Shown one piece after another: positions 126 to 57,527 of a stretch of 64,000 nt of DNA. The stretch is from Candidatus Altiarchaeota archaeon. GTDB lineage: Archaea > Altiarchaeota > Altiarchaeia > IMC4 > SCGC-AAA252-I15. The notes beneath the pieces are model-generated. The model did no database searches and was not told where the DNA came from. It worked only from the letters and a program-made list of their open reading frames with translations. The first letter of the stretch is position 1. Each line of letters starts with the position of its first letter. Location of the stretch: NCBI GenBank assembly GCA_043800705.1, contig JAZDMS010000021.1, positions 1 to 64,000 of the forward strand, written 5' to 3'. Made by a program: the position numbers and the translations under genes.

Positions 126-282
126 GCCGATGTAGCTCAGACTGGTTAGAGCGCCAGACTCATAAGCCCCGACCCCCAAAAGGCCGGCCAATGAGGCGCC
201 CCAAGACCAAAAAGCTTGGAGCTTACACGATAATTCCCGCTGAGTTATCTGGAAGCCGCGTGTTCAAGTCACGCCATCGGCA
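126..282 (+). tRNA. tRNA-Met(CAT), probably elongator, with an 82-nt intron (165-246) at canonical position 37/38
   Basis: Cloverleaf: acceptor GCCGATG/CATCGGC-A, D arm GCTC..GAGC, anticodon arm CCAGA-CT-CAT-A|..|A-TCTGG, T arm GCGTG-TTCAAGT-CACGC. BHB motif: helix CTCA/TGAG flanked by 3-nt bulges TAA and TTA. Confidence 0.95.
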
Positions 283-365
283 TAGAACAAATATTCTCCG
301 TGTTTTAGTTGCTTATGGTTGTTAATTTCGGGTTCTGTAATCTGCCCCTCAGGTGACTTGAACAC
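260..365. repeat. att-like site 1: tRNA T arm GTGTTCAAGTCAC (260-272) and its perfect inverted copy GTGACTTGAACAC (353-365)
   Basis: 13-bp perfect inverted repeat read directly. The inverted arm continues as GAACACTGTGTTC, a small dyad. Confidence 0.85.
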
Positions 366-455
366 TGTGTTCGGATTTTTTCTTTAAGCATAACGCCTAG
401 GAGATGATATTTAACCCACCAATGCGTATTTATATATACTTATATAATTGATAAT

Positions 456-728
456 ATGGTCAACGCTTATCCAGTATTGCATTATCCGCGGTTAGATACT
501 GTGTTGATGATAGAGGATGCTATCAAGAATGCGGATGGCTACAAGACCAAGACACAGATTTGGAGGAGCCTGCCGAAGAAAGTCATGTACCAGACGTTCC
601 AGCTTACGCTAAGTTACCTTGAGAAATCCAACAAGGTAGTAATCGACAAGGACGGCAAAGTCGTATGGGTATTCGCCGACAATCAAAAACTTAAGAAAAC
701 GCTTCTGGAAAGCGTCAAGGTGAGGTAA
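456..728 (+). CDS. small winged-helix DNA-binding protein, putative antitoxin
   Basis: 90 aa with a wHTH-like pattern (KTKTQIWRSLPKKVMYQTFQLTLSYLEKSNKVVIDKDGKVVW); 5 nt upstream of a RelE-like ORF. Confidence 0.6.
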   Translation: MVNAYPVLHYPRLDTVLMIEDAIKNADGYKTKTQIWRSLPKKVMYQTFQLTLSYLEKSNKVVIDKDGKVVWVFADNQKLKKTLLESVKVR

Positions 729-733
729 CCCTA

Positions 734-1078
734 ATGAACAACGTGAGCCTTACTGGAAAATTCAATGAAGAGTATGTCAAACTTAACAAGAGAGCCGATT
801 GCGGGGACGGCGAGTCAGAATATCTACTCAAACTGGTCGACAAAGGCATCGCCAAGTTGGCCGAGGATTTGACCTGCGGAGTGAAAATTCCAAAACGGCT
901 CTGGCCCAAGGAGTATGTGACAGAGTACGGGATCAATAACCTGTGGAAACTCAACCTCGACAGCTACTGGCGCATGATCTACACGATAGTCGGCGACCAA
1001 GCCCAACTAATCGGGATAATCCTTGAAGTCCTAGACCACAAGAAGTACGACCGAAAATTTGGATACAAGACGAGCTAA
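734..1078 (+). CDS. RelE/ParE-superfamily toxin-like protein
   Basis: 114 aa with NLWKLNL..YWRMIYTI..ILEVLDHKKYDRKFGY, typical of archaeal RelE-like toxins. Confidence 0.65.
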   Translation: MNNVSLTGKFNEEYVKLNKRADCGDGESEYLLKLVDKGIAKLAEDLTCGVKIPKRLWPKEYVTEYGINNLWKLNLDSYWRMIYTIVGDQAQLIGIILEVLDHKKYDRKFGYKTS

Positions 1079-1158
1079 GGTGAACATTGTACGCTAGCCG
1101 TGATTTTTAAAACCTGCCTGAAACATCGAAATTCATGGGTCTCTGCCTACCGTCCAAC

Positions 1159-1204
1159 AAAAGTATGCTTTTGCGAACACTTTGTTCGAGGCCCGCCATC
1201 GGCA
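1159..1204 (+). repeat. att-like site 2 (degenerate tRNA 3'-end copy)
   Basis: AAAAGTATGCTTTT-G-CGAACACTTTGTTCGAGGCCCGCCATCGGCA; the last 21 nt match the tRNA end GTTCAAGTCACGCCATCGGCA with 3 mismatches. Confidence 0.85.
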
Positions 1205-1454
1205 TACAAGAAACGGATTCAAGACGCTACAGTGGTTGTTTTTTCATTTCATTGGCGACTTCATCCAACTCGCCTCGTTCCATTTGATGAAATGCTCGGC
1301 AGCACCATATTTGAAACCGAACACATCACTTGTATCCCGAGAGATATGGATGACTTAATGCTCGGCCGCCTCACCATCTTGGAAAGATGGACTATCAAGG
1401 GTTCGATAGGGATGCATGGGCAAGGATGCGACATGCATAATAAATTGCCCGGAA

Positions 1455-3269
1455 TCACTGATTAGTTAAAGCAAGACATGTATGGTCTACGCATTTACAA
1501 AGAGGGCATTGGTCTGATTTGTAAATACCACATGGGTAGTATCCATGTCTAGTACACATTTTCTGAAAATATTCTACCTGCCATTCCCTATTTGCGCACT
1601 CCTTCCATTTTCCATTTTGGGAACAACCCAAACCACCTGGAACACAATCACTGCCCAGTTCGCAATATTTATCAGGTAAATCCTGATTGAAAGAAGTAGT
1701 CGCCTTCGACGTGCAGGCACAGTCCATATAAATCTCACAAAGCCAGTTATCGCCATTTTTACACTTTTCGGGATTGGCACAGATGACTTCGCAGTACCCA
1801 TATCTTTTTCTCAAATCCTCGCATTTTGTACAGTCTAACGCTATGATGCAAACGTTTTCCTCGCATGAAGCGATGGTATCGTTTACTTCCGGGTACGGCG
1901 TGTGACCGGGCGGTCCGGTTTCTATTTTGCCTTCCCATTCCAAGCATTCTTGGTCGTCATTGCGACAGGACCGTATCTTACCATAGTTGTTCGAGCGAAT
2001 GATACAATCTGAATCCGCAACGCATCTGTTTTTCAATTGGTAATTGGATGTTGTGCTTGTAGGCGTGTCCCTCCTGCATTCCTCTATCTGCCGAGTCATG
2101 TAGCTTTGGAGGCTCTGCGCGTTGTCGAGTATTTGCCCCTCGCAGTAGGCTTCTTGGCCGCTTTTGCATTGGCGGCGCGTCTGGGCTGCAAACTCTTTTA
2201 TCTGTCGGTCTATGTTTTGGGCTATCATCTCGCAGATTCCTAGGTCGTTCTTCGCCTGCGCCACTTTCATGTAGCACCTGAGGTTGGATGCGTCGTCGCA
2301 TATGTGCGGGTCGTCATGGCTTAGGGCCTCCTTCACCATGCAGTCAAGGTCTGTGAACAAGCAGGTATGTTTGTCCATCCTGCACATCCGCTTCTCCTCA
2401 TCATCCAACACAATGCCCTTCGGCATCTGCTGAAGGACGCTGAAGCAGCAGTCCCTGCGCGCCCACTCGAGCCCTGGCCGCATGCACAGCCGTATCTCCT
2501 TCTTCTCGGCAGCGACCTTGTCGATGCATTCGTCCACATAACGCATCTCCCATGTGCGGTAGTGTTCGCATATGGTCTCGTTTTTCTTGGCGACAGCCAC
2601 GGCGTCGTAGCAGCCGCTGTAGTGAGACATCCTGCAGACTGTGGGGTCATCTTCGTTTATGGCCCGCTCGATGAGACAGCCAAGGTCAGACTCAAGGCAA
2701 CCTTTGTGGTCGAGGAACAATGCGGCGTCGGCGACAGTCAATCCGGCCAGAACCAGCAGGGCCGCCGTGCGGACCCTCCTCTCAGAGGACAGGTATGTCA
2801 GCCAGCCGACGATGGCTGAGACTAACGACGTAATCACGGGGTATGCGAGGAGGAAGACGCTTATCAGGAGCGCACTGCCAGCCATCGTCCCCAACACCCC
2901 CAGATAGCTCTTTGTGCGTGATTCGCTCAATGCGAAGGCCAGAGGGGACATGAGGAGCCCATACGCGAGTATGCACAACGATACGAGCGCCCAAAGCAGG
3001 AGCATGACACCCGCGACCTTAAGCGGCGTTCGAAATCTCAGCGACTCCCGCCCAGCGTTGAGGCTGATGAGGCAAGATAGGGTCATGGTGGCCAGAAACG
3101 GAGACGTGACCAGCAGGATGTCCGACGGTCGCCCTATCCCTGATCCGAGGAGTTCGAGAACCCATAGGGATGCTACGGCCAGGCCCCATGTCATCGCACC
3201 CCAAAGGAACGCCATTGGAGCCTTCGCCAACCAGCTTAGCTTTGATATGGGGGATGACGTGTCCATCAA
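1455..3269 (-). CDS. membrane protein with a large Cys-rich extracellular repeat region
   Basis: 604 aa: about 5 N-terminal TM helices, then repeated C..C motifs (DPTVC..CY..VAVAKKNETIC; DPHIC..CY.KVAQAKNDLGIC; C..DSDC). Confidence 0.75.
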   Translation of the reverse strand: MMDTSSPISKLSWLAKAPMAFLWGAMTWGLAVASLWVLELLGSGIGRPSDILLVTSPFLATMTLSCLISLNAGRESLRFRTPLKVAGVMLLLWALVSLCILAYGLLMSPLAFALSESRTKSYLGVLGTMAGSALLISVFLLAYPVITSLVSAIVGWLTYLSSERRVRTAALLVLAGLTVADAALFLDHKGCLESDLGCLIERAINEDDPTVCRMSHYSGCYDAVAVAKKNETICEHYRTWEMRYVDECIDKVAAEKKEIRLCMRPGLEWARRDCCFSVLQQMPKGIVLDDEEKRMCRMDKHTCLFTDLDCMVKEALSHDDPHICDDASNLRCYMKVAQAKNDLGICEMIAQNIDRQIKEFAAQTRRQCKSGQEAYCEGQILDNAQSLQSYMTRQIEECRRDTPTSTTSNYQLKNRCVADSDCIIRSNNYGKIRSCRNDDQECLEWEGKIETGPPGHTPYPEVNDTIASCEENVCIIALDCTKCEDLRKRYGYCEVICANPEKCKNGDNWLCEIYMDCACTSKATTSFNQDLPDKYCELGSDCVPGGLGCSQNGKWKECANREWQVEYFQKMCTRHGYYPCGIYKSDQCPLCKCVDHTCLALTNQ

Positions 3270-3616
3270 TGGAGTTATTCGGTTTTGTTATTTATTAGGG
3301 TGCATACTTGGGATGTGCAGTCCGTTGTTGAGGTCAATCTCACTGGTTTAGATGGGGAGCTTTTTGGTGTTGCAGTCTCAGAAGTCACTGATATCGAATG
3401 CGCCGACACCCGGCGCCCTTAGCCTGCGTTTATCTGGCATCCTCTTGGCTACGACGTCGTAGGTCACCCCTCCCCCAAGCCCCGGAACATGTTCCATATT
3501 TTGTCGGAGGTTCCGTACCCCTGTACTCTCGAGACCTATCCAATTTGAACAGTTTTCTAATATACTTCTAATCCCATTAATATCTGGAAGCGAGCCTTTT
3601 CAAGGCTGGTTGCGAA

Positions 3617-3682
3617 TTGAACACAATACTGAGATGCCCGCCATCGGCATCCTACGTCTAGTTCAAGTCACTGACAGCGGCA
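3617..3682 (+). repeat. att-like site 3 (two degenerate tRNA 3'-end copies)
   Basis: TTGAACAC..GCCCGCCATCGGCA (3617-3649) and GTTCAAGTCACTGACAGCGGCA (3661-3682). TATCTGGAAGC at 3581-3591 also matches tRNA locus 246-256. Confidence 0.7.
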
Positions 3683-3728
3683 TGCCAAAGTCGGTTTTTA
3701 ATCACTCAAAGTGATAACATATTAGGTC

Positions 3729-5546
3729 TTGAATTTGATAAAAATATTCTCAAACAACAAATACTTGGCGATTATTGCACTACTAGCACTACTACTTCTT
3801 AAATTCTTGTGGGGTTTTTTTGGTAAGATTGATGATTGGAGTTATTCTTACACTCCAATGGGCACGTATCTACTCTATGGCGGCATCGCCTTTGCAATTT
3901 TGTTTATTTGGGGCATATACTCATCTAGAAAAAATATCAAGCGGCTTGTGATTGTTTTGTTCCTGCTAATTGTGCCTTTGTTTCTTATTGGGGGCATATT
4001 CTGGCAGCTGGGAATATTCAACATGAATAGTGCCAGCTCAGGTAATATGGGTTTTAGCACTGGGGGTGCAAAGGATATAAATAATTTCAGGAGAAACATT
4101 GAAAACAATTATCTCCCCTTGCAAACTGACATAACCTATGAGGGATTGTTCTATGAATACTTTTTTGACACAGGTGAGAAGAAACCCTGCGAGAAGCTTT
4201 TCTGTCCATCATATGATTATGCCATATCAAAAGACCCGATCTCAGGGAAGGATGACCAATATCTCTCAGTTGGGTTAAATTCAGGGATAAAGGAAAAGGA
4301 CTTTAAGCGGAAAAAACTCAACTTAGTAGTTGTATTGGATATGTCCGGGTCCATGAGCTCCCCCTTCAATAGGTACTACTACGACCAGTTTGGACATAGT
4401 ACGAATGTTAATTGGAGCAGTGATACAGATGCCGATAAAAGCAAGATGGAGGTTGCGAATAGGGCAGTAGTGAGTCTGCTTGACCATTTGAATAGTGATG
4501 ACCGGTTTGGAATGGTCCTCTACGATGACCAGGCATACTTGGCTAAACCACTAAGAGAAGTAAAAGACACGGACATGGATGCTATTAAGGGGCATGTATT
4601 AGAGATTCAACCACGTGGCGGAACATATTTTGAGGCTGGATATCGGATGGGCAGTGGATTATTCGACGATTGCATAGGTGTAGACCAAGACGAATATGAG
4701 AACAGGATAATATTCCTGACAGATGCACAACCCAACATGGGTATGCTCAATGAGGACAGTCTTTTAGGGCTTACGAAAATGAATTCAGAGAAGAAAGTAC
4801 ACACAACCTTCATTGGTATCGGAGTTGACTTCAATACAGAACTCGTGGAGCATATCACTAAAATCAGGGGTTCGAACTACTATAGTGTTAACTCCCCTGC
4901 GGAGTTCAAAACCAGGATGGATAACGAATTTGAGTACATGGTAACTCCTTTAGTCTTTAACTTAACTCTTAAACTTGACTCAAAAGGCTACAAGATAGAA
5001 AAGGTCTACGGCAGCCCAGAAGCTAACGAGTCAACTGGTGACGTGATGAGGGTTAACACCCTCTTCCCGTCCAAAAAGGATGAGAGGGGGACTAAAGGCG
5101 GTATTGTGATTCTAAAACTGACAAAGCTGTCGCCTGATGCGGGTATGAAACTCAAGGTTAGCTACGAAGATAGGCAGGGTAAAACTGATGGGGACGAAAT
5201 GGCAGTAGTGATTAGCGATAGACGAGCAGATTATTATGAGAACAATGGTGTCCGAAAGGGAGTTCTGCTTTCTAAGTACGCAGACCTCATGAAAAACTGG
5301 ATAAATGATGAGCGAACGGGTTACTTGACAAAGCAGCCTACGAGATCGTCTGTGACTAATGAAAGTGGCATAATTGTCCCTCAATTCAGCAAATGGGAAA
5401 GACAATCGATACCCCTCCATGTTTCGGGCGAGTATAAAGCCCTCTTTATCAGATTCCGGGACTACCTACAAGAAGAGATGAATGAAATAGGGGACCAGAC
5501 ACTATCCAAGGAAGTTGATATTTTTAACAAGCTCACACGAAATTGA
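3729..5546 (+). CDS. membrane-anchored von Willebrand factor A domain protein
   Basis: MIDAS motif DMSGSM, GGT and FLTDA; 3 N-terminal TM helices; paralog at 36521-38419. Confidence 0.88.
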   Translation: MNLIKIFSNNKYLAIIALLALLLLKFLWGFFGKIDDWSYSYTPMGTYLLYGGIAFAILFIWGIYSSRKNIKRLVIVLFLLIVPLFLIGGIFWQLGIFNMNSASSGNMGFSTGGAKDINNFRRNIENNYLPLQTDITYEGLFYEYFFDTGEKKPCEKLFCPSYDYAISKDPISGKDDQYLSVGLNSGIKEKDFKRKKLNLVVVLDMSGSMSSPFNRYYYDQFGHSTNVNWSSDTDADKSKMEVANRAVVSLLDHLNSDDRFGMVLYDDQAYLAKPLREVKDTDMDAIKGHVLEIQPRGGTYFEAGYRMGSGLFDDCIGVDQDEYENRIIFLTDAQPNMGMLNEDSLLGLTKMNSEKKVHTTFIGIGVDFNTELVEHITKIRGSNYYSVNSPAEFKTRMDNEFEYMVTPLVFNLTLKLDSKGYKIEKVYGSPEANESTGDVMRVNTLFPSKKDERGTKGGIVILKLTKLSPDAGMKLKVSYEDRQGKTDGDEMAVVISDRRADYYENNGVRKGVLLSKYADLMKNWINDERTGYLTKQPTRSSVTNESGIIVPQFSKWERQSIPLHVSGEYKALFIRFRDYLQEEMNEIGDQTLSKEVDIFNKLTRN

Positions 5547-5610
5547 ACGTATCCCTTTGATAGGTCGTCTTGCATAGGTTTTATTCCCCGAATCTGAGGA
5601 GTATGCAAGG

Positions 5611-5715
5611 GACTTGAACTACAACTTCATGTCACGCCATCGGCATGAAAAGGCAGTATAAGGCACTTATAGTTCATATAATCACAGTTTACGATTTTGC
5701 TTGAGACTCGAACAC
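5611..5715. repeat. att-like site 4 (tRNA 3'-end copy, spacer and inverted arm)
   Basis: GACTTGAACTACAACTTCATGTCACGCCATCGGCA (5611-5645), a 57-nt spacer, then GAGACTCGAACAC (5703-5715). Confidence 0.85.
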
Positions 5716-5799
5716 TGAGTTTAATTGATGGTTTAGGTAGAACTACAGAGATGATCGTTATTTATATAGTATATCTATCGTATATATAATGGATATACG

Positions 5800-6057
5800 A
5801 TGAAAATGATTACTTTGAAGTTGGAAGATGGGCTGTTGGCTCAGATGGATAATGTGTCTCACGACTTTGGTTTCTCAAGCCGTACGGAGTTCATAAGGAA
5901 CGCTCTGAGGGACAAAGTCGAGGAATATCATCTAAAGCAGGCCATATTGAAGCTCGAGAAGGGCAAAGGCGCATTCAAGGGAAAAGGAGCAGCGAGCAAG
6001 GATTATGAGGCAGCTCGTGATGCGGCATTCGAGAAAATAACGGCAAAGCTCAGATGA
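5800..6057 (+). CDS. CopG/ribbon-helix-helix protein, putative antitoxin
   Basis: MKMITLKLEDGLLAQMDNVSHDFGFSSRTEFIRNALR is an RHH signature. Confidence 0.85.
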   Translation: MKMITLKLEDGLLAQMDNVSHDFGFSSRTEFIRNALRDKVEEYHLKQAILKLEKGKGAFKGKGAASKDYEAARDAAFEKITAKLR

Positions 6058-6467
6058 TCTCTTCCGGCTTGCTAGAATTAACGATACCCTTCAATAGTTC
6101 AAAGTGATTGTCTCGGGTAACGAGTAATGCATTGTTGTCTCTGGCTAACACTGCATGGAGGGCATCACCTCTTGGAACATTTTGCGCATGTGAAATTCCC
6201 CTAGCTTCTTCGATCTGCAGGTCACTAATCAAAACTTTTTCCAGTAATCTCATGCCCTTCAATGACTCGAAACAATATTCCCTCAATCTCCTGCACTTTG
6301 TACTCTATTTTCAGCTCCTCCAACACCAACTCAGAATAGAGAACAGTATGCTTGCAGGTCATAGCGTACTTCAAGAACTGGAAGGCGAACTCCCCTAACG
6401 GCTTCAGGTTATCCTCACGAGCCTCAAGAAAGTCTCTCCAGATACACGCATCAACATAGTATCTCAT
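6050..6467 (-). pseudogene. PIN-domain (VapC-like) toxin, frameshifted near 6280
   Basis: N-terminal MRYYVDACIWRD and C-terminal GDALHAVLARDNNALLVTRDNHF lie in different frames; there is one extra G in GAG-G-GAA. Confidence 0.8.
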
Positions 6468-6761
6468 CAAATGGATATGATAACTCCAGCCTAAAAGAAA
6501 CATCCAGTGTCCGGACCACAGCAACAAAGGCAGCCGCTTACAGACAGCACCAGCACCATCGCCAAAGAGGCTAGAACAAGCTTTCCCGTAGTAGTGATTA
6601 TTTTTAATAGAATAATAACGCGACGGCATACATACTTTGATAAAATAGGACTATGAGAGACTGACCCCGGGTCCCTTGGCACGATTGGAACTTAGCCCCT
6701 GCTTTTCGTGAATTTTTTAGGGTTTTGCTCACATGGTTTAAGTTAATGATCTTAGCGCGTA

Positions 6762-6971
6762 ATGTATTTCATGTCTGAGCAGAAGTTGACCAAATCCAAG
6801 ATTGCAATACTATTATCTTTGTTCGTTATGGTGGGGGCGGGTTTTGTTGGGATACTGCTCGCCTTTTTCGTAAATAAAACACTGGGGATAGTGGCGATAT
6901 TCTTTGGATTATTCCTCGGAGTCGTGGGGATAGCGGGGGGAGTGACACTCGATAAGGTCTGGAAGAAGTAG
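6762..6971 (+). CDS. small two-TM membrane protein
   Basis: 69 aa with two hydrophobic helices. Confidence 0.55.
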   Translation: MYFMSEQKLTKSKIAILLSLFVMVGAGFVGILLAFFVNKTLGIVAIFFGLFLGVVGIAGGVTLDKVWKK

Positions 6972-6984
6972 CTGCAGCATCAGA

Positions 6985-7006
6985 TGTTTAGTCCTCGTTA
7001 TCGGCA
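6985..7006 (+). repeat. possible highly degenerate att-like site
   Basis: TGTTTAGTCCTCGTTATCGGCA versus tRNA TGTTCAAGTCACGCCATCGGCA (15/22); lies between two convergent genes. Confidence 0.4.
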
Positions 7007-7012
7007 AACGTT

Positions 7013-7906
7013 TCATGCGAATTTGCTGTCGTCGCACTCGTATGCGCCGATGATTTTTCCGCCGCCCGCGACTATCCCCCAATAGAGTCTCGCCTGAGCC
7101 CAGCAGGAGGTTGTGGAAACCCTATTCCATCCCCCGACAACATAACCGACCGGGTTGTACCATGCCCGCTGCTCGTTTATCGTCTGGATCCTGTCGAGCT
7201 CCTCGTTGCATGCGTCGTCCATGAGGCTTTTGAATTCGTCGTCGCATGTTTTTTGGGGTGTGAACGTCTGCCCGCATTCTGCGTAGCATTTGTCGTGGCG
7301 GTAGCATGCGAAGTTGAAGCTCGCCTGCGATACCAGGTGTTTGTTGGGGCCGCTGAACTTCCCCTCCGGGCCGCAGTAGTTCTTGCTCGCGTTGTACGGT
7401 TCGAATGTGCCTGCGTCCTTCGGGGGTTTCTTCTTCGGGCCTATTCCCTTGGTGTCCAGGGGTTGTTCTTTGCCGCCGAATGTTCCGCTCACGACTACGC
7501 CGCGGGTGCCGGCGTTGTAGTTCCCGACTTCGTTTATTGTGAAGCCGCCTGACGTGGCGCCCGGCGGTATGTCGACTGAGACTGAGAAGTCTTTCGACCA
7601 GGGCGCGTTGCCCTCTGCGGAAAATGTCTTCTGGTTGTCGCCTGCTGACACGGAAACGGAGACTGAGCCGCTGTAGCCGTTGTTCGCCTTCACGCTACCT
7701 GCGACTGTCAGCTTACTTCCTGTCAGGGTCCCGTTGTGCCTTCTGGAGCAGGTGAAGCTATATGCGTCGACCGGCGCCTGAAGCGTGGCCCCGGATACCG
7801 TGTAGGATACCTGCAGACCGTTGAACGGGTCGGTGGGGAACGTCTCGGCGTAGACTATGCCGAGGAGAGCGTAGGTAAGAAGTAGGGTCGCCAATAATAT
7901 CTTCAT
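7013..7906 (-). CDS. secreted protein with a C-terminal phospholipase A2-like domain
   Basis: Signal peptide, beta-rich N-terminal domain, then NYCGP...FACYRHDKCY...CD, the His-Asp sPLA2 motif. Confidence 0.7.
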   Translation of the reverse strand: MKILLATLLLTYALLGIVYAETFPTDPFNGLQVSYTVSGATLQAPVDAYSFTCSRRHNGTLTGSKLTVAGSVKANNGYSGSVSVSVSAGDNQKTFSAEGNAPWSKDFSVSVDIPPGATSGGFTINEVGNYNAGTRGVVVSGTFGGKEQPLDTKGIGPKKKPPKDAGTFEPYNASKNYCGPEGKFSGPNKHLVSQASFNFACYRHDKCYAECGQTFTPQKTCDDEFKSLMDDACNEELDRIQTINEQRAWYNPVGYVVGGWNRVSTTSCWAQARLYWGIVAGGGKIIGAYECDDSKFA

Positions 7907-8056
7907 GATAAGTTTTAATAATGCACTGGGAGGATAAAAACGTCTGATTACAAGTCAGGTAAACCCATAAAAGCCAGCCTTATACGGACGGATAATCAGC
8001 GAGTCCTTAGTTGGGTGCAGGGCTTGTGTTTTTACCCTATATGTTGAATATAACAC

Positions 8057-8932
8057 ATGGTTTTTGGTTGGGCCTTGAGAGGTTTATTGGCTTTTGCAAT
8101 TGCTTTGTTGGTTTATCTGGTGGTCGCTTCAGTTGCGGCTCAGACGGGGGACGCTCATTGGGATGATTTTTTCAAGCATCCCCCCGGCTATTGGTCGCTT
8201 AAGGGGGTCTCACATAACCCGCAACCGCAGCCAAACAACGAGTATAGAACTAATACCTTCAAGTCGGAGAACGGCAAAATCGAGGGCACCTCGAAAGACC
8301 CTGGACACCGCATCGGGAACCAGCAACCAGGTTCTGCCTCAGCCACGCTGACTTGGACGCCACTTCCCAAGAGGATTGAGGATAATCAGAAGTTTGATAT
8401 CAACATATCAGTCGAAGGGAAGAAGGAAGGCGAGATACTCATCATAGACCGAAACACCATCAGGGGGGACGGTTCAGTCGCTGGGGCGTGCCAGAGCTTT
8501 CAGGACGCATCCCCCCTCAGTATCCCTCCATTCAGATGGAACGGCATGCCTGGCGAAAAGGTCACGAAGACCATCAAATTCCCATCTTTCGCGAAGATCT
8601 ACAGCTGCTACACCATAATAGACCGCACGTCCGACTCAGCGGACGCTATGAGAAAGGCTTCGCTGGTGGCTGGCAAGTACGAGTTCAACTATACGCTACA
8701 GACTGAACTCGACGAAGGCCAAGACAACTATACCTACACTTATGTTTGGGTGCCAACAGGGAAGGGCGGCGCAACAGCATTAGGGAAGGAGACGGGAGGC
8801 TCAGACGTGTCAGCATCAGGGAAGGAAACGGCAGACAAGTCAGATGGTAATAAGGTGTGCGGACTCATCCCCCTATTGACTCTTGTCACTGCGGGACTCA
8901 CAGCATTAGTGGGGAAGACAATAATGCCCTGA
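8057..8932 (+). CDS. secreted/surface protein with a C-terminal membrane anchor
   Basis: Signal peptide, G/S/K linker and terminal VCGLIPLLTLVTAGLTALVGK, resembling a CGP-CTERM sorting signal. Confidence 0.7.
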   Translation: MVFGWALRGLLAFAIALLVYLVVASVAAQTGDAHWDDFFKHPPGYWSLKGVSHNPQPQPNNEYRTNTFKSENGKIEGTSKDPGHRIGNQQPGSASATLTWTPLPKRIEDNQKFDINISVEGKKEGEILIIDRNTIRGDGSVAGACQSFQDASPLSIPPFRWNGMPGEKVTKTIKFPSFAKIYSCYTIIDRTSDSADAMRKASLVAGKYEFNYTLQTELDEGQDNYTYTYVWVPTGKGGATALGKETGGSDVSASGKETADKSDGNKVCGLIPLLTLVTAGLTALVGKTIMP

Positions 8933-9104
8933 TCGAGAGATAACCTACGAGAAGTTCTATGAGCACATTGACGGCCCGGGCTTGAGTGAGTACATCTACC
9001 AGAAATCGCCTAATCCCCAGAATCCGCATCTTTTCCTCTAAAAGTCGCCATTTGATGGTAGACAAGCCAAAATCCCAATAATCTTCCGATATATCGAATA
9101 TCCT

Positions 9105-9226
9105 AAAAGCATGCTTTTCCGAACAGATAGTTCGAGGCACGCCATCGGCAAGGGGCTGAAAAGGCATTATAATGCCTTTCCACAACCCATAAAGCGATTT
9201 TACGATTTTGTTTGTGACTTGAACAC
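9105..9226. repeat. att-like site 5 (palindrome, tRNA 3'-end copy, spacer and inverted arm)
   Basis: AAAAGCATGCTTTT, then CGAACAGATAGTTCGAGGCACGCCATCGGCA (to 9150), a spacer homologous to that of site 4, and GTGACTTGAACAC (9214-9226). Confidence 0.9.
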
Positions 9227-9240
9227 GCACGCCAATTAGG

Positions 9241-9759
9241 TCATTCCTGGGGGTATAGATTTTCCAGGACGTATTTCAAGTTGGCCTTGTAGTTTTCGTC
9301 GTTGCCGACATATTCTACTCTCTTGGCGCGGGATTTTATCATCTGCTTTGTCAGCTTATGCTTCTGTATGCAGGAGTGTATATCACTTATGTCTCTGTCA
9401 TTCAGGCGTCCAATCTTCGAGACCACAATATCCAAGGGGTGCAGGGCGTATAGTCGGATGTTCTTGAATCCATGCTTTATGGGAATCCTCATAGTCGTCC
9501 AATCAGCAGGGAGCTGTTGGCTGAAGACCATGCCGCCGTGGAATAGGTCGATTTTATACCCATGACTGATGCTCTCCAAGGTCTTCCTGAATCGCTCCAG
9601 GTGCTTGGTTTCGACGTCGAAGTCTATATCCATGGTCGAATCCTTCAGCCCAAGAAGCGTCATGGCAGTGCCCCCGACTGCTGTAAGCTCCACAGGTTCC
9701 TTAAGCTCTTTGTCCACTACAGCCAGGAATTCAATTAGTTTGTCAGCTTCAAGCGGCAT
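9241..9759 (-). CDS. DUF6036/AbiEii-like nucleotidyltransferase
   Basis: VGGTAM..LGLKDSTMDIDF motif and DIVVSKIGRLNDRDISD. Confidence 0.8.
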   Translation of the reverse strand: MPLEADKLIEFLAVVDKELKEPVELTAVGGTAMTLLGLKDSTMDIDFDVETKHLERFRKTLESISHGYKIDLFHGGMVFSQQLPADWTTMRIPIKHGFKNIRLYALHPLDIVVSKIGRLNDRDISDIHSCIQKHKLTKQMIKSRAKRVEYVGNDENYKANLKYVLENLYPQE

Positions 9760-10834
9760 CGTATTTCCTCAACGTTTCAAGAAGGTCTTGGGCTGATGTC
9801 CGGGTATCAATGCCCCACCTTCCTGAAGTCGTATTAGATTTCAATTGTGTGTAGAAGACATTGAATATGATAAGACCTTGACTTAAAGCGGTCTGTTTCT
9901 TATCGTCTTGAGTAAGCTCCTTGACGGAGTCTATGAGGTAGCCTAACATGCTGAGTTTATTGTGTTTCAATCCTAGATACAGGAGCAGACGAATGTTTAT
10001 TTTGTTCTTGCCTATCAAGACTGCTGCCGCCTCTGTGAGTCTCGCGTCGTCTTTCAAGAGGCATGCCATTATAGTGGTTTCAATATTCAGGTCTGCGGTC
10101 TTCTCTGACGATATTTTAGTGAAGGCTGTATAACCGAATCTCTCCAGATTCCAATAAAGCTCCTGTTCGCTGATTTTCCTGGGTTCAATTTCTTCGGCTG
10201 GCGATGTCGGCGGGGTTTGGGAGACAATCCTCCAGAAGCCGGACTGATTCTCCAAGACAACCTTGTCCGTTAGTATCTCCTTTGCTTGATTGTAGCCTTC
10301 GCTCTGAAGCATCGTCTTAAACTCCTCCTCGGTGAGAATCAAGGAGTAAACCTTTAGGTTGTTTTTCTTGGAAATCTCTTGAATACGTCTACAAAGCCCT
10401 TCAGCTGCTAAATCAGAGTCTATCAGGAATAAAATCTCGGCAGTGTTCAGTTTTGCGTTTTTCTCAGGCCGGATGATAGCGGTCGCCTTTAGGTTAATGT
10501 CTCGAATGGATTCTATGTCTCTGAGCAGCTGCTCCTCGCCCTTGTTCTTCTCAAGGAACTCCTTTTTCCCCCTCAGCTCCATGGATGCAAGTTCGTCAAT
10601 CGTCCCTGGGTTGGTCAACCTCAGATAAAGCAGCGAAGTCATGCCGGTCTTCTCAATCTTTATGATTCCCTCATCTTTGAGCTTCTGGCATTTGTCGTAT
10701 ATGTTCTTGTAGTATGCCGTATACCCTAACTCCCGTATGCGCCTAACTAACTCGCTTATGGACTGCCCCCTGTCAAGCCTTCTGGAAAGGGCATACAACA
10801 CCCTATAAGTTGTAGAATCCATGTTATTTCCCAT
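9749..10834 (-). CDS. wHTH-containing protein with a degenerate NTase-like middle domain, partner of the DUF6036 gene
   Basis: N-terminal SISELVRRI..YYKNIYDKCQKLKDEGIIKIEK wHTH; overlaps the start of the NTase gene. Confidence 0.65.
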   Translation of the reverse strand: MGNNMDSTTYRVLYALSRRLDRGQSISELVRRIRELGYTAYYKNIYDKCQKLKDEGIIKIEKTGMTSLLYLRLTNPGTIDELASMELRGKKEFLEKNKGEEQLLRDIESIRDINLKATAIIRPEKNAKLNTAEILFLIDSDLAAEGLCRRIQEISKKNNLKVYSLILTEEEFKTMLQSEGYNQAKEILTDKVVLENQSGFWRIVSQTPPTSPAEEIEPRKISEQELYWNLERFGYTAFTKISSEKTADLNIETTIMACLLKDDARLTEAAAVLIGKNKINIRLLLYLGLKHNKLSMLGYLIDSVKELTQDDKKQTALSQGLIIFNVFYTQLKSNTTSGRWGIDTRTSAQDLLETLRKYDAA

Positions 10835-11172
10835 AGATAGTATTATTACTATAACATTATAGTTTAAATACTATAACTTCTCCCGTAGGGCTAATAGGCT
10901 ATCCCTTGTTTGTTTCATCCAACAGTAATTATATGGATCCCTCTTTGTTTGTCTCTGAAAATGTTAGCGACAGGGAGGGACAAATGAGCCAACTCACGAG
11001 AAAAAGGTTTGTCTTCTGGAGGATTGCGTAAGGATATAAAAGTACAATGGAGAAGGATCAACACGGCTCAACTTCCCTAAAATTTTATTTATTACGATAA
11101 GATACTATCTGATTACAGGAAAGCGCACGGGATCTTACGCGAATAGTGGTTTAGTATAACGCATATCCTGTT

Positions 11173-11186
11173 GCCCGCCATCGACA
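11173..11186 (+). repeat. distal degenerate att-like remnant
   Basis: GCCCGCCATCGACA versus GCCCGCCATCGGCA of sites 2 and 3; lies near the shift to GC-rich backbone. Confidence 0.55.
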
Positions 11187-51989: not shown

Positions 51990-52078
51990 AGAAACCGCCT
52001 CCAATAGAAGTAAGGCTTTAAAATTATTGTAGAAACTATATGGCATCATGCCTATATAAATGAACCGGTATTCCGCGA

Positions 52079-52146
52079 CTTTGCTCCTAAATACTGTTTT
52101 GCTCCTTTTTATTTGGGGTTGCTCCTTTTTAACGAAAACTGCTCCT
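52079..52146 (+). repeat. left end: four TGCTCCT motifs
   Basis: At 52082, 52100, 52120 and 52140 (spacing 18/20/20). Confidence 0.92.
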
Positions 52147-52149
52147 TTA

Positions 52150-52758
52150 CTATTGGTTTGAACGGTCTATATCATCTATTTTATCGTTTTTTGTGATTAT
52201 GGTCATTTTTCTTTCGCTGAGATTTATTGAGGATAACATAGGCTCATATAACTCAAAAAATTTCTCAAGGTCAAACCATTGGTCATCTAGTCCTTGAATA
52301 ATCTTTCCATTTCTACAAGAGAGTATTCCTTCTGCAAAGGGGCCCCAATTAGTATATCTCCACCACATTGCCCCTCTCTTTAGAGTTGATTCATAAGGAA
52401 AATTAGGTCGTGCAAAAATTGTATGATATAAGCCAGTACATTGCCCTATGCGTTCATAAAATCTAGGCAGTGCGTAATAAATTATTCCATTAAATTTATT
52501 TTGAAGAAGGTTATGCTGTTCTTTATCTAACTCCCAATAGATAGTCCTGCCATTACACTTGGCAGCCTTGAATTGTAAACCAAAAATTTTGTTACCAACT
52601 CTAAAAAGTTCATCTGCTGGGAACCTGGATTCTTGTTTAGGGCTTAGGCTTATCCATTCAACAGCAAAACCCCGCCTTCTAAAATATTCTTCGATACAGG
52701 GTACGATTCGTATTGTATACTCCCTTTCTATGAGTCGGGGATATGTTATTTTAATCAC
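52150..52758 (-). CDS. PD-(D/E)xK-like nuclease
   Basis: E..FPADELFRVGNKIFGLQFKA resembles a PD..QxK restriction-endonuclease-like site. Confidence 0.55.
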   Translation of the reverse strand: MIKITYPRLIEREYTIRIVPCIEEYFRRRGFAVEWISLSPKQESRFPADELFRVGNKIFGLQFKAAKCNGRTIYWELDKEQHNLLQNKFNGIIYYALPRFYERIGQCTGLYHTIFARPNFPYESTLKRGAMWWRYTNWGPFAEGILSCRNGKIIQGLDDQWFDLEKFFELYEPMLSSINLSERKMTIITKNDKIDDIDRSNQ

Positions 52759-52772
52759 CCATTTTGTAGTGC

Positions 52773-53945
52773 CTAACTTACTAATATCTCGTGAACATCC
52801 GTCATAATTTTTTTAACTTCCGGTTTTGTATGTTCTTTTGCTTCGACATATGGAAGATATGTTTTTTTAGTGTCTGAATTAACAATCTTTTTTGAGAGTT
52901 CCTTTAGTTCATAATAGAAGGTGTGCATCTTATGAACCTTAAGTCCAGGTAACACATGTTGGGGAGTATAAATCTCTTCTAGTGAATACTTTTTACATGT
53001 CGGACAAGTACAATGGGGGTCTTTTTTTATTATCTCATTTTTTCTGTATGCTCCATAGTCGTCTGTTAGCATATACCTACATTTTTCTGGTACTAGTGGT
53101 CCTCCCCCCCAAATTACGTTTGATATTGTGTCTATCCCATACGCATGGACAAGAACATCGGTAGCTGGTGATATGCCTTTCGTGGATTTCCTATTTGTGG
53201 CGACATTGAAAGCATGTAGGTAATATTTTTCGTTTTTTTCGCTATTACCTTTAATTTTCAACGAATTGCGGATAGTACGGATAACTGCTCTTAAGAGGGC
53301 AGAAGGATAAGATGAACCACTAAAATCTACTCCGAATATCCTACATTCCTTGTCCTGCCTCAAATATTCTTTTACTATATCTGCCGCCAAGCTCACATCA
53401 TCTAAACGAGGGATATATGCCATCATTGGCTTTTCGTAATTAAACGTTTGGATTTCGTTTATAGTTCGTTCAATTACCTTTCCCACTATCTTTCTACTAC
53501 TTACCCCGCCGGGTATGGGCGTAACCACTATATCCGTGCCAGTTTCAAGTTCGGCTCCAACGATACTAGACGCTTGTAAATCAGTTATCGTGTGATGCGG
53601 ATAGATTACTCCATCGACATCGTAAGTATTTGGTATTCTCGGATACACTATGTTTATGGTTTTTCTAGGGTTGAGTAGCCTAGCAGAAAGCCTATTTTGT
53701 AAATCGGTTATAGCTGATGCGGACGTCCCAATCTGGCTAAAGGTATCATACCCTAGATTTTCACCTGCAATATTGATGGTCGAATCAGGGTACTCATAGC
53801 CAGCTATCTTAGCGTATATCTCAGCATCCCTGCTGGTTATCCCATGAATAGGCCCAATGGCCTTTTTACCGTTAATCTCAAGACTTAAGCTCCTAGCAAG
53901 GCTTACACTGTCTTGTCCTATCACTTCTAATTCAAAAGAGGTCAT
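52773..53945 (-). CDS. divergent tRNA-guanine transglycosylase (TGT)-fold protein
   Basis: N-terminal FELEVIGQD..LARSLSLEINGK, YYLHAF, YGIDT and zinc site CTCPTC..H; canonical catalytic motifs not evident. Confidence 0.6.
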   Translation of the reverse strand: MTSFELEVIGQDSVSLARSLSLEINGKKAIGPIHGITSRDAEIYAKIAGYEYPDSTINIAGENLGYDTFSQIGTSASAITDLQNRLSARLLNPRKTINIVYPRIPNTYDVDGVIYPHHTITDLQASSIVGAELETGTDIVVTPIPGGVSSRKIVGKVIERTINEIQTFNYEKPMMAYIPRLDDVSLAADIVKEYLRQDKECRIFGVDFSGSSYPSALLRAVIRTIRNSLKIKGNSEKNEKYYLHAFNVATNRKSTKGISPATDVLVHAYGIDTISNVIWGGGPLVPEKCRYMLTDDYGAYRKNEIIKKDPHCTCPTCKKYSLEEIYTPQHVLPGLKVHKMHTFYYELKELSKKIVNSDTKKTYLPYVEAKEHTKPEVKKIMTDVHEILVS

Positions 53946-53976
53946 AGATAGTATATAGTTGCTTGGATTTAAAAGG

Positions 53977-54132
53977 TTATCGGTTGGTTACACCATTTTG
54001 TTTCCTAAGTTCATGTAGAATTGCCGTCTCAACAAATTTGCCTATTGTAAGGTCTAAATCTATCGATTTCTTCTTTGCTTCCTTCCATACCTCTTTGTCT
54101 AGCCTTAGACTAACTGTAGTTCTTTCTGTCAT
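53977..54132 (-). CDS. ribbon-helix-helix regulator (51 aa; absent from the ORF track)
   Basis: MTERTTVSLRLDKEVWKEAKKKSIDLDLTIGKFVETAILHEL; preceded by TGTAA(T) repeats. Confidence 0.8.
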   Translation of the reverse strand: MTERTTVSLRLDKEVWKEAKKKSIDLDLTIGKFVETAILHELRKQNGVTNR

Positions 54133-54227
54133 ATTTATCACATTATATTATGTAATATTGCATTCAAATATTTAAATAAAAGTGTAAACAATAATGTAAT
54201 AATGTAATAATTTTAACCCTAGTTACC

Positions 54228-55433
54228 TTAATATGCCGTAAATGTTGGATTTACCCCTAATTCATGCATTTCCTGTATCAGTACGCAGATATTGTGGCAG
54301 ATGAACTTGCATAGTAGCTCGTTCACCTGCGCCTTGTATTTCTTCGATTTCAGTTTGTCGCCGAACTTCGCCTTAACCATATTCATCGTGGATTCTACGT
54401 TGCTTCTTTGGTGGTAGTGCTGTAGGAACTCCTCTCGGTTCAGTTGAAAGTAGTGGTACATTCTCGTCCACGTTAATGAACCTCTGCTTTTACCGGTGTC
54501 ATTTTTCTTGAACGGCAGGTAAGCAGTCGCCCCTATCTTGTTCGCCAAGTTGTAGTTATCTCTGCTCGTGTATGCTTTATCGGCAGTTATCTCCTTGATT
54601 TCAAAACCGCCCTCGTAAGCTTCTGTTATCAATGGAGCGAACTGCGGGCAGTCTGCTCCGTTCTCTGGCGTGATTTTTGCGGAGGCTATCACGTTGGTTT
54701 TCGTGCCGACAAGAACGTGCGCCTTAACCCAATGATGCTGTCGTCTCGTATTGTGTTTCTCGACGCAGTATTGGTTGAATTGTGTGCTTCGGAATCCTGT
54801 GCTGTCAGGCCCGAATGTCGTCTCGACGCTTTTCAACGGCAGGGCAGATACCGTAAGGAGCTTGTGCAGTATCGGCGTTATGTCCTCCCTCGGCAGGAAC
54901 TTGTTGATTGCGTTGAAGTTCGGAGTCTTGCTAACCTGCTCCCTCTCCTGGGCGTTCCGGTATAGTGTGTGCGCTCTCCTGCTCGACAGACCTGAGTAGA
55001 CCTTCTGGATAGAGCAGAACAAATCATCTCTCAGGCTTATCGGCTTGCGCCCTACAAGGTTAGGGTCACGCTGTGGCTCGTCCACGTTGTCCACTAAGTC
55101 CCGCAGGAGCTTGTCGAAAAATGTTATCTCCTGCGTCTGTGCCTTGTTATAAGCCGTCCAGTCCTGTTTGTATGTGACTTTCTTGGTTTCAGTCACGGTG
55201 GTTGTTCCGTTCTTTTCAACGGTCTTGCTGATGGTGTGCATCACTGCGTAGCTGTGCTTGCAGGTCACACCCCTAGTCTGGCAGTCTGGGCAGTCGCATA
55301 CGTAGCGTCCTTCTTTGCGCTGGACGAAGTATGCGCCGCTCCCGCCTTGTGCTGGCACTATCCACCCATGCTTTGTCTGTTCTAAGCCGCCTTTTTCAGC
55401 GATTTGTATTCCTCTCATTTCCCGTGCATCCAT
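54228..55433 (-). CDS. DDE transposase (IS4/IS5-superfamily-like) with an N-terminal SWIM zinc finger
   Basis: CDCPD..CKH SWIM motif; DSTGF, ADKAY and YHQRSNVES(..)K DDE motifs. Confidence 0.92.
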   Translation of the reverse strand: MDAREMRGIQIAEKGGLEQTKHGWIVPAQGGSGAYFVQRKEGRYVCDCPDCQTRGVTCKHSYAVMHTISKTVEKNGTTTVTETKKVTYKQDWTAYNKAQTQEITFFDKLLRDLVDNVDEPQRDPNLVGRKPISLRDDLFCSIQKVYSGLSSRRAHTLYRNAQEREQVSKTPNFNAINKFLPREDITPILHKLLTVSALPLKSVETTFGPDSTGFRSTQFNQYCVEKHNTRRQHHWVKAHVLVGTKTNVIASAKITPENGADCPQFAPLITEAYEGGFEIKEITADKAYTSRDNYNLANKIGATAYLPFKKNDTGKSRGSLTWTRMYHYFQLNREEFLQHYHQRSNVESTMNMVKAKFGDKLKSKKYKAQVNELLCKFICHNICVLIQEMHELGVNPTFTAY

Positions 55434-55446
55434 TTACATCACCTAC

Positions 55447-55541
55447 TATATACCTATATAGTATATTACTCCATAGGTATATAAATACTTATCGGTGATG
55501 GGATATGTTTATTGGAGTATATACTTGGTATTTATATACCT
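55447..55541. promoter_or_regulatory. divergent promoter region with TATATACCT repeats
   Basis: 11-bp IR TATATACCTAT (55447-55457) / ATAGGTATATA (55473-55483); a further TATATACCT at 55533. Confidence 0.55.
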
Positions 55542-55566
55542 GAAAATAATATACTACCTGATAAAG

Positions 55567-55731
55567 ATGGCGTCGAAGGTTGAAATCAAAGTTATGGGCT
55601 ATCATTGCGAACGATGCGGATACGAATGGGTGCCAAGGAACGATAAAGTCTCTCCGAGAGTGTGCCCAAAATGTAAAAGCCCCTACTGGGACAAACCGAG
55701 GAAAAAACAAGCTCAAGGAGGAATAAGTTAA
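55567..55731 (+). CDS. small CxxC..CPxC zinc-ribbon protein
   Basis: CERCGYEWVPR..PRVCPKCKSPYWDKPR. Confidence 0.85.
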   Translation: MASKVEIKVMGYHCERCGYEWVPRNDKVSPRVCPKCKSPYWDKPRKKQAQGGIS

Positions 55732-55807
55732 ATATTTTTCTATCGCTCTCTTTGTACACCTATTTAAGCTAAGCTAGTTTAGATAGTAATTGCATGATGA
55801 AGTAGAT

Positions 55808-56398: not shown

Positions 56399-56401
56399 CT
56401 T

Positions 56402-56968: not shown

Positions 56969-56969
56969 A

Positions 56970-57353: not shown

Positions 57354-57386
57354 CAATACATCAGGACCAGGACCATGAGCTACATT

Positions 57387-57467
57387 TGCTCCTTTTTACC
57401 CCCGGCTGCTCCTAAATGGTTTTAGATGCTCCTTTATGCTGCTCCTATTTGAAGTTAAGGAGCAAAG
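57387..57467 (+). repeat. right end: four TGCTCCT motifs plus one inverted terminal copy
   Basis: At 57387, 57407, 57427 and 57440; AGGAGCAAAG at 57458-57467. Confidence 0.92.
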
Positions 57468-57527
57468 CCGGTATTCCGCCGGTTGCCGTGGTTCTCCCTT
57501 TTTTATCGGGCAATCCAAGTATATTTG

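Follow-up and report, generated by a model that had tools for sequence, protein, structure and literature searches.

A tRNA-Met-anchored array of small gene units separated by tRNA-tail copies in an Altiarchaeota genome

The window analyzed here covers the first 64 kb of an 85.5-kb contig, C18, in G000, a metagenome-assembled genome (MAG; 2.0 Mb in 43 contigs, 87.5% complete) of a Candidatus Altiarchaeota archaeon. Its first 11 kb hold an intron-bearing tRNA-Met gene, followed by five small gene units that each end in a copy of the 3' tail of that tRNA. An original prediction, made from the letters of the window alone, had described this region as an integron-like platform onto which cassettes without an integrase are added serially by a recombinase acting in trans. 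Here, tRNA genes were called with Rfam and with ARAGORN (introns allowed), the domains of open reading frames (ORFs) were assigned with Pfam, NCBIfam, and PADLOC, and all genomes used for comparison were MAGs.

The tRNA-Met gene and the units that follow it

The tRNA-Met(CAT) gene (126..282, + strand) contains an 82-nucleotide (nt) intron, i(40,82), and was recovered both by ARAGORN with introns and by Rfam (RF00005, 55.5 bits), being the sole match to any family in the Rfam scan of the window; default ARAGORN, which does not allow introns, made no call at 126-282. Contig C18 starts only 125 nt upstream of this gene, and a comparison of contig ends revealed no overlap between C18 and the other G000 contigs. 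The last 21 nt of the tRNA (262-282, +) represent the docking site, S0. At ≤3 mismatches, this 21-mer, GTTCAAGTCACGCCATCGGCA, was matched four times in the window (starting at 262, 1184, 5625, and 9130), always on the + strand, while none of 100 shuffled sequences gave any match. Its 11-nt core, CGCCATCGGCA, was found seven times at ≤1 mismatch, including six times on the + strand within 272-11186; beyond the tRNA, exact copies start at 1194, 3639, 5635, and 9140, and a copy with one mismatch starts at 11176. The seventh match (21527; one mismatch) is no more than chance would give: shuffles averaged 1.71 matches, and 1 of 100 reached a total of seven. In all, five tail copies follow tRNA-Met on the same strand, ending at 1204, 3649, 5645, 9150, and 11186, and all six sites are intergenic relative to long ORFs; just one site is overlapped by an ORF, a doubtful 110-aa GTG frame (8898-9230). 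The predicted recurrence of the tail between genes, in a single orientation, was thereby borne out. The predicted list of sites held for the main copies and needed three corrections: the third copy starts at 5625 rather than 5626, positions 3661-3682 form a second, hybrid site, and the weak copy proposed at 6985-7006 (14 of 21 positions matching at 6986-7006) is at chance level, with about 1.5 such matches expected in 11 kb on both strands.

The five units between these cores measure 0.9 to 3.5 kb and lie within 283-11186. The first, c1 (922 bp; 283..1204, +), carries a 90-aa ORF (456-728), for which the winged helix-turn-helix label originally given found no library match, and a RelE/ParE-like 114-aa ORF (734-1078), an assignment that is a lead only, on the basis of a protein-atlas feature score of 0.97 to RelE/ParE clusters. 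It begins with a type-B right arm (283..375, +), in which the T-arm recurs in inverted form at 353-365 (GTGACTTGAACAC), ahead of a decayed half-site. This arm, in which an inverted repeat was detected, aligns with the right arms of L053 and L052, and its box is 84% identical in L053; judging by its sequence, 283..375 reads as a decayed empty module. The unit ends in site S1 (1159..1204, +), where a left arm, AAAAGTATGCTTTT-GCGAACAC-TTT, is joined to GTTCGAGGCC-CGCCATCGGCA. The second unit, c2 (2.4 kb; 1205..3649), contains as its sole ORF a 604-aa frame on the − strand (1455-3269), without a family match in Pfam, NCBIfam, or PADLOC. At site S2 (3636..3682, +), the core (3639-3649) is followed by 11 nt and then by the hybrid site (3661-3682), which consists of a tRNA-like left half, GTTCAAGTCAC, and a diverged right half, TGACAGCGGCA. 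The third unit, c3 (2.0 kb; 3650..5645, +), encodes a 605-aa von Willebrand factor A protein (3729-5546; Pfam VWA_2, 3.2e-09, and VWA, 2e-08) and ends in S3 (5625..5645, +; CTTCATGTCACGCCATCGGCA, two mismatches), after which a type-B right arm follows (5646-5715).

The largest unit, c4 (3.5 kb; 5646..9150), holds five genes on mixed strands: a ribbon-helix-helix (RHH) protein assigned by Pfam (5800-6057, +), a PIN-like gene (6050-6650, −), a small membrane ORF (6762-6971, +), a Cys-rich 297-aa ORF (7013-7906, −), and a 291-aa ORF (8057-8932, +). The PIN-like gene occupies two overlapping frames, 6225-6650 and 6050-6304, which reflects either a frameshift or a sequencing error; the gene is convergent with the RHH gene and forms no operon with it. 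A phospholipase A2-like protein, also proposed originally, stayed far under the cut-off (16.6 versus 34 bits). The doubtful decayed site at 6986-7006 may split c4 in two. Site S4 (9105..9226, +) joins a type-A left arm and core (9105-9150) to a type-B right arm with a hairpin, AAAGGCATTATAATGCCTTT, and an inverted T-arm box (9214-9226); a near-identical arm is present in metagenome contig L054. Finally, c5 (2.0 kb; 9151..11186, −) encodes a DUF6036 nucleotidyltransferase (9241-9759; Pfam, 1.9e-14) and a 361-aa partner (9749-10834) and closes with S5 (11166..11186, +; TCCTGTTGCC-CGCCATCGACA, one mismatch in the core), the last recognizable site, whose 100-nt left arm recurs in the related genome G001 (80% over 100 nt, L041:11234-11331). 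From c1 to c5, gene strands thus run + + in c1, − in c2, + in c3, + − + − + in c4, and − − in c5. In sum, the von Willebrand, RHH, and nucleotidyltransferase labels of the prediction stood, its RelE rests on the atlas lead, and its PIN gene reads as frameshifted.

As had been proposed, these tRNA-bounded units are free of an integrase: Pfam found no recombinase domain in the 20 ORFs of window positions 1 to 16.6 kb, and neither NCBIfam nor PADLOC reported an integrase among the window ORFs (PADLOC gave 0 hits for 10 proteins). The G+C content is 0.42 to 0.56 across 1-11 kb versus 0.53 to 0.62 at 13-51 kb. In G000 as a whole, the 21-mer at ≤3 mismatches is confined to C18:262-9150 (four of the nine matches at ≤5 mismatches) and is therefore not equally common in unrelated intergenic DNA. 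The exact core occurs 11 times in the MAG: the array accounts for five copies, GC-rich, arm-less sequence for another five, and the end of contig C1 for one. The copy on C1 (C1:54667-54710, 123 nt from the contig end) consists of a Met-type core, 11 nt, and GTTCAAGTCACTGAC, the motif that also flanks site 3649; this core directly adjoins sequence of backbone G+C content, and no tRNA was found on C1. Such a copy could mark a rearrangement junction or the distal edge of an array that is missing from the assembly, or it could be a secondary site.

Conserved arms around different cargo

The prediction had overlooked that the sites are embedded in conserved arms of 45 to 120 nt. Sites S1 and S4 share 46 nt (87%), and S1 is 93% identical to L053:1249-1294. 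The 46 nt comprise, in this order, a palindrome (AAAAGYATGCTTTT), the inverted-repeat element GAACAC-N3-GTTCGAGG, and the core. We compared 18 non-tRNA sites from G000, G001, G002, G003, G015, G022, and four metagenome contigs, and in nine of these the core is preceded by a type-A left arm, AAAGTATGC-TTTT-NCGAACA-N3; the remaining sites have degenerate left arms with a GAACA box at an unchanged distance. About 120 nt of arm is common to S1, L051r:1057, and L053:1294, and a second extended version is common to S4, L039:5116, and L051r:5309. When 49 genomes of the order were scanned with the left-arm pattern, it was found at seven places in five genomes (reversed control, 0), and in public collections the arm-plus-core pattern was recovered from four metagenome contigs and three genome contigs but from no viral contig. 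Right arms come in two types, each present at 8 of 26 sites: type B (70 to 90 nt) contains a hairpin and an inverted T-arm copy, GACTTGAACAC, followed by a decayed half-site, and type A, to which S2 conforms, consists of about 11 nt and then GTTCAAGTCAY, beyond which the sequence is unrelated.

The composition of the sites also bears on the place of exchange. Seven type-A sites from different genomes have the left half GTTCGAGGCN, the counterpart of which in the tRNA is GTTCAAGTCA; because GTTCGAGGCN is conserved where the tRNA has GTTCAAGTCA, the type-A left half belongs to the unit and not to the tRNA. The reverse case is presented by the type-A right arms and by 3661-3682, in which a tRNA-type left half is followed, after GTCAC, by foreign sequence. 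Unit-borne left halves, together with hybrid sites broken after GTCAC, suggest that exchange takes place near the boundary between T-stem and acceptor, as far as alignments of sites can tell.

Among 41 genomes (G000 and 40 relatives), 29 contained the 21-mer at ≤3 mismatches, mostly just as part of the tRNA, and the contigs of many relatives break near tRNA-Met. In congener G003 (L039), tRNA-Met is followed by a different unit of 1.8 kb, in which two unrelated small ORFs are of secreted or membrane type, an S1-identical site, a homologue of c5 (70.4% nt identity over 1648 nt, L039:5139-6759), a decayed type-A site (at about L039:6770-6812), and core genes that align with the window from 16812 onward (77.5% nt). 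Only the most tRNA-distal unit of the window is common to the two genomes; the four others in the window, all nearer to the tRNA, are additional. This combination, a shared tRNA-distal unit and different proximal content, is the pattern predicted by serial insertion beside the tRNA. In line with the prediction, units vary between relatives at the orthologous tRNA-Met, and gene order is not fixed: G003 differs at the sites.

Other relatives extend the range of cargo. In G022, from another family of the order, a 286-bp unit holds one small Cys-rich ORF (identified by eye) and has a type-A arm at its end. Our own reading of translations gives one methyltransferase-like ORF in an 827-bp unit at L042, one glycosyltransferase-like ORF in a 1460-bp unit at L052, and PIN and RHH ORFs in a 991-bp unit at L053; further units contain a Fic-motif protein (1.1 kb, L041 of G001) and an NYN protein (L051). 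The arms of the L053 unit match those of c1 (right, 84%; left, 93%), while the cargo is unrelated, and tblastx detected no similarity among the cargos of the same-armed units of c1, L053, and L051. The Fic unit in G001 lies with Met-type sites (contig C12, L041:10041-11420) 16 nt behind a presumed intron-bearing tRNA-Phe, on which default ARAGORN makes no call and whose tail differs from that of tRNA-Met at 3 of 23 positions; such a locus is as expected for a sequence-guided secondary site.

Tail copies and hairpin modules at other tRNA genes

A second aspect absent from the prediction is that tail copies are spread over the genome. The last 14 nt of 31 tRNAs called by ARAGORN (after removal of three calls whose introns were implausibly long) were searched, at ≤1 mismatch, in the 15 kb downstream on the same strand. 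At least one copy was found for 14 of these 31 tRNAs, for a total of 27 copies, compared with 0 in each of three control searches, which covered the opposite strand downstream and either strand upstream. Besides the contig of the window, C2, C5, C9, C14, C15, C23, C29, C30, C35, and C39 are affected. Particularly extensive is the array behind tRNA-Gln (C30:533-605), where seven copies bound low-GC units of 0.75 to 1.6 kb with left arms that carry an inverted T-arm box. In G003, copies were present at 4 of 13 tRNAs examined (6 kb each), or at 5 of 14 when tRNA-Met is counted, and in G024 (another family; 97% complete) at 1 of 18. The phenomenon is hence not specific to tRNA-Met, which constitutes no special platform.

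Tail copies are often spaced 75 to 98 nt apart, corresponding to modules of about 87 nt. Each module opens with a conserved TAGTATCAC-like start and a small hairpin; next come an inner arm, 11 nt long and complementary to the tRNA tail, a hairpin resembling a terminator, and finally the tail copy. Examples lie behind tRNA-Val, -Gly, -Gln, -Arg, and -Ala, at L068:815-991 (−), L067:145-230 and 2178-4083, L069:189-349, and L070:666-751 (−). In an alignment of 16 modules, from nine different tRNA genes and three genomes, 91.5% of the cells of the 11-bp helix are paired (slid controls, 30 to 56%), and 6 of 11 pairs have changed on both sides (26 cells), a covariation score reached in 0 of 500 shuffles. 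Between G000 and G001, for instance, the acceptor stems of tRNA-Val differ, and the module arm follows the change. A strict version of the motif was found 10 times in G000, three times in G001, where identical tandem modules are present, and not at all in the other 47 genomes of the order; Rfam, run on eight other tRNA loci, matched no family to the modules. A second module family, GGTTGATAAGGGC...GCCCTTATGT before a tail copy, was observed at tRNA-Thr(ggt) (C39:8097-8477) and tRNA-Leu(tag) (C29:31536-31766). In addition, degenerate GGTCTTCGG/CCGAAGACC-like short repeats trail several tRNA arrays (C23:3990-4160, C35:49700-49800, and C14 after tRNA-Asp).

Candidate recombinases and the origin of the array

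The recombinase that, according to the prediction, acts in trans did not come to light in our searches. At other loci, Pfam detected no recombinase domain in 10 ORFs of the G003 array or in seven ORFs of L051, and no integrase was found in a 3-kb stretch preceding tRNA-Met in G003 or in the available parts of the metagenome and genome contigs with the arm-plus-core pattern. A six-frame search of the MAG gave a single PF00589 (tyrosine recombinase) match, at C17:487-957, off the array contig, and no match to PF16795 (SSV-type integrase), PF01797 (Y1 transposase), PF00239 (serine recombinase), or PF01867 (Cas1); the last was also without a match in G001, G003, and G015. As the MAG is 87.5% complete, absence of these classes is not proven.

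The 272-aa protein on C17 scored best against archaeal XerA (172.5 bits; cut-off, 220), reached 168 bits against the integron integrase model TIGR02249 (cut-off, 265), and is also shorter than an integron integrase. Its gene adjoins tpiA, and the syntenic tpiA loci of G001 and G003 lack it. We rejected as unsupported a role for this gene as a platform integrase that, like that of an integron, is divergent from the tRNA, since C17 and C18 show no contig-end overlap, G001 and G003 are without the gene, and neither the Met tail nor the repeats of the downstream array lie near it; two 12-mer matches nearby, with one mismatch each to the tails of tRNA-Ala(tgc) and tRNA-Tyr(gta), were taken as chance. 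Elsewhere in the order, five xerA contexts are contiguous and have no tRNA beside the gene, and in a sixth, tRNAs are 7.9 kb away. As a side observation, 15 of 27 order-wide PF00589 matches (E ≤ 2e-30), including those on G000 C17 and G015 C212, start ≤1.5 kb from contig coordinate 1, and a feature next to xerA seems to break assemblies.

Order-wide, PF00589 was matched in 30 of 49 genomes, and among the matches is an ORF family of about 400 aa. One member, a 418-aa ORF in G021, a distantly related genome of the order, follows tRNA-Met after a gap of 140 nt, the only such case directly downstream in the order; no relatives of this integrase were found in viral contigs. The order thus has an integrase using tRNA-Met, yet it shows no tie to the cassettes. 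Integrases close to tRNA-Met in G016, where the gene abuts a different tRNA, and in G040, where it lies upstream of the tRNA, were not taken as support. Similarly, 14 viral stretches (on 13 contigs) that match the bare 21-mer were set aside, reading as bacterial-type tRNA genes with a long variable arm and GGCACCA ends.

Taking these findings together, we consider it somewhat better than an even chance (about 0.55) that 283-11186 is an accretion array, in which non-autonomous units have been inserted serially at the tRNA-Met tail by a trans-acting recombinase. Conservative site-specific recombination would insert small units one by one at the 3' end of the tRNA, each unit consisting of a right arm, one to five cargo genes, and a left arm of 45 to 120 nt ending in a copy of the tail, with sizes of 0.9 to 3.5 kb here and down to about 0.3 kb in relatives. 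The newest unit would enter beside the tRNA and displace older ones outward, and each junction would keep the core (C/A-CGCCATCGGCA), with the arm of the upstream unit on its left and that of the downstream unit on its right. The recombinase would be encoded outside the units; candidates are the family of about 400 aa (G021 type), an unbinned plasmid or virus, and the host XerA-like enzyme. Such insertion may be continuing at present.

Several observations weigh against this scenario. No recombinase could be tied to the sites, neither an excised circle nor an empty site came to light, and the four other genomes of the genus lack a PF00589 match even though arrays are present. The integrase element of G021 lacks a second core over 13.7 kb, and its arms could not be matched to those of the cassettes. 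In G002, both genes of c1 have homologues (53% and 41% aa identity), which lie between two sites in the opposite orientation, so that the cargo does not form a fixed module with the arms. The decay of the distal sites could mean that the array is old and inactive, the identical tandem modules of G001 could stem from unequal crossing-over, and simple integration leaves the covariation of the inner arm with the tRNA tail unexplained. Lastly, the scenario is drawn from assembled MAG sequences, including an incomplete MAG (87.5%) and a contig that starts 125 nt before the tRNA.

A broader possibility, which we regard as tentative, is that the genus possesses a system of cassette capture that arose independently of integrons, with many tRNA 3' ends as docks and with hairpin units that are shuffled by a recombinase reading the tail helix. 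Units would then be modules that are either empty, at about 87 nt, or carry one to five genes, and a recombinase that reads the tail helix rather than one fixed sequence would account for an inner arm that covaries with the host tRNA. This possibility would combine serial insertion with the model of a tRNA-linked structured module considered below, the modules being empty cassettes and the hairpin the substrate of recombination.

Alternatively, the units might be decayed remnants of larger, integrase-bearing elements at tRNA-Met, that is, an archaeal equivalent of cis-mobilizable elements (CIMEs), with neither cassettes nor present movement. Accretion followed by decay is the textbook origin of tRNA-fragment arrays (PMC5704250; bioRxiv 10.1101/2020.12.28.424599; PMC9897764), and a full integrase beside tRNA-Met in G021, worn distal sites (the mismatch in S5, the degenerate terminal site of G003), and the frameshifted PIN-like cargo gene fit such an origin. 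Nevertheless, we judge it unlikely: both arms are intact around units of 0.3 to 1 kb with intact, unrelated cargo of one or two genes in different genomes, the six-frame searches of the MAG found no integrase fragment near the array, and no unit at the loci examined contained a recombinase. None of the blocks of the window proved to be the leftover of a large integrase-bearing element.

Less likely again is that the tail repeats represent a tRNA-linked RNA or DNA hairpin module, copied by slippage, unequal crossing-over, template switching, or a target-duplicating transposase, and that the genes between copies are ordinary island genes trapped between repeats. The 27 same-strand copies at 14 of 31 tRNAs (versus 0 in three controls), their frequent spacing of 75 to 98 nt, the long hairpin fold with its covarying inner arm, the identical tandem copies in G001, and the G-T pairs in the helix, which are tolerable in RNA, are all in line with this explanation. 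On the other hand, target duplication explains neither the unit-borne GTTCGAGGCN beside the core in seven sites from different genomes nor the conservation of both arms around unrelated cargo; slippage is unable to import foreign low-GC genes, and the MAG yielded no Cas1, Y1 transposase, or serine recombinase and the modules no Rfam match. Chance matching or artefacts of assembly are hardly credible as the source of the repeats, because, despite a 43-contig MAG and relatives whose contigs often break near tRNA-Met, 0 of 100 shuffles gave a match and the same architecture recurs in independent MAGs and metagenome contigs.

Of the systems known, accretion arrays come closest. In such arrays, elements integrate one after another at a single tRNA 3' end, the newer displacing the older, and CIME-type units lack an integrase, keep attL and attR, and have partial tRNA copies between them (PMC5704250; bioRxiv 10.1101/2020.12.28.424599). 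The likeness lies in the same-strand direct repeats of the tRNA 3' end that flank each unit downstream of an intact tRNA and in units without integration genes that retain both att sites. The array differs in its archaeal host with nearly half of the detected tRNAs affected, in its conserved arms around unrelated cargo of one or two genes, and in that no integrase-bearing partner was seen in the genus; the only link to such an element is the 418-aa ORF of G021, for which no arm similarity, second core, or counterpart in the genus or in viruses was found. The tycheposons of Prochlorococcus share the scattered partial tRNAs but measure about 10 to 20 kb rather than 0.3 to 3.5 kb. SSV/pNOB8-type archaeal elements likewise use tRNA 3' ends as attachment sites and may integrate in tandem at one locus, but they encode their own integrase, which is split upon integration in the SSV type; the sections of the review used here mention tandem elements and nothing resembling these units (PMC8371274). 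The array, by contrast, holds no fragment of PF16795 or PF00589.

Integrons, including those of archaea (Ghaly et al. 2022, PMC9668308), carry short, toxin-antitoxin-rich cassettes with the newest beside the docking site and have sites with inverted repeats, and integron arrays are mostly found without an integrase, as clusters of attC sites lacking integron-integrases (CALINs). The array is comparable in the size of its cassettes, in its toxin-antitoxin content, and in the polarity of insertion. Differences include the lack of an IntI by the docking site (only 125 nt upstream of the window tRNA being assembled), docks that are tRNA genes and occur many times per genome, and mixed gene orientation, whereas integron cassettes are generally co-oriented. 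Furthermore, attC sites have the consensus RYYYAAC...GTTRRRY with R''/L''...L'/R' boxes and form hairpins. The sites described here read GAACAC-N3-GTTCRAG plus the tRNA tail, with inverted repeats 3 to 5 nt apart, and GTTCRAG misfits GTTRRRY in what is a check against the consensus only. We therefore regard the array as not an integron, and the "integron-like" of the original prediction as an analogy of function only.

Integrase-less units of one to three genes, often toxin-antitoxin pairs, are also moved by a host tyrosine recombinase in the integrative mobile elements exploiting Xer (IMEX) and the pdif modules of Acinetobacter plasmids. Here, however, the sites are tRNA tails and not dif-like XerC/XerD sites, and the XerA-like gene is confined to G000 among five genomes of the genus, congeners without it having arrays as well. 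Of the hallmarks of casposons (a Cas1 casposase, terminal inverted repeats, and a target duplication of 14 to 15 bp), Cas1 was not found, and the unit-borne left half argues against plain target duplication. Palindrome-associated transposable elements (PATEs) of the IS200/IS605 type resemble the units in the hairpins of their arms, but G000 has no PF01797 match, and the shared core is 11 to 13 nt, not 4 to 5. A limited literature search turned up neither integrase-less cassette arrays nor tRNA-tail hairpin modules described from Altiarchaeota or other archaea.

Arrays of partial tRNAs are usually read as graveyards of large elements, whereas this one has cassette-sized units, conserved arms around interchangeable cargo (toxin-antitoxin pairs and single enzymes), and turnover beside the tRNA in a lineage with no integrase in sight. 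If a trans-acting mover is indeed involved, gene capture of the integron kind would have a second, independent route, archaeal and operating at many tRNA loci, which would explain the exchange of accessory and defence genes among uncultured archaea with small genomes. The covarying hairpin modules offer a concrete, testable substrate with which the recombinase might be found.

A few further features were noted along the way. Positions 52000-57500 of the window form a second low-GC island (0.35 to 0.44 versus about 0.58), in which no tRNA was called. Many tRNAs of G000 contain long introns (up to 148 nt). Finally, ARAGORN called a tRNA with a 99-nt intron and the anticodon TTA, which would read UAA, at C24:1772-1945 (−); this may be either a false call or a suppressor-like tRNA.

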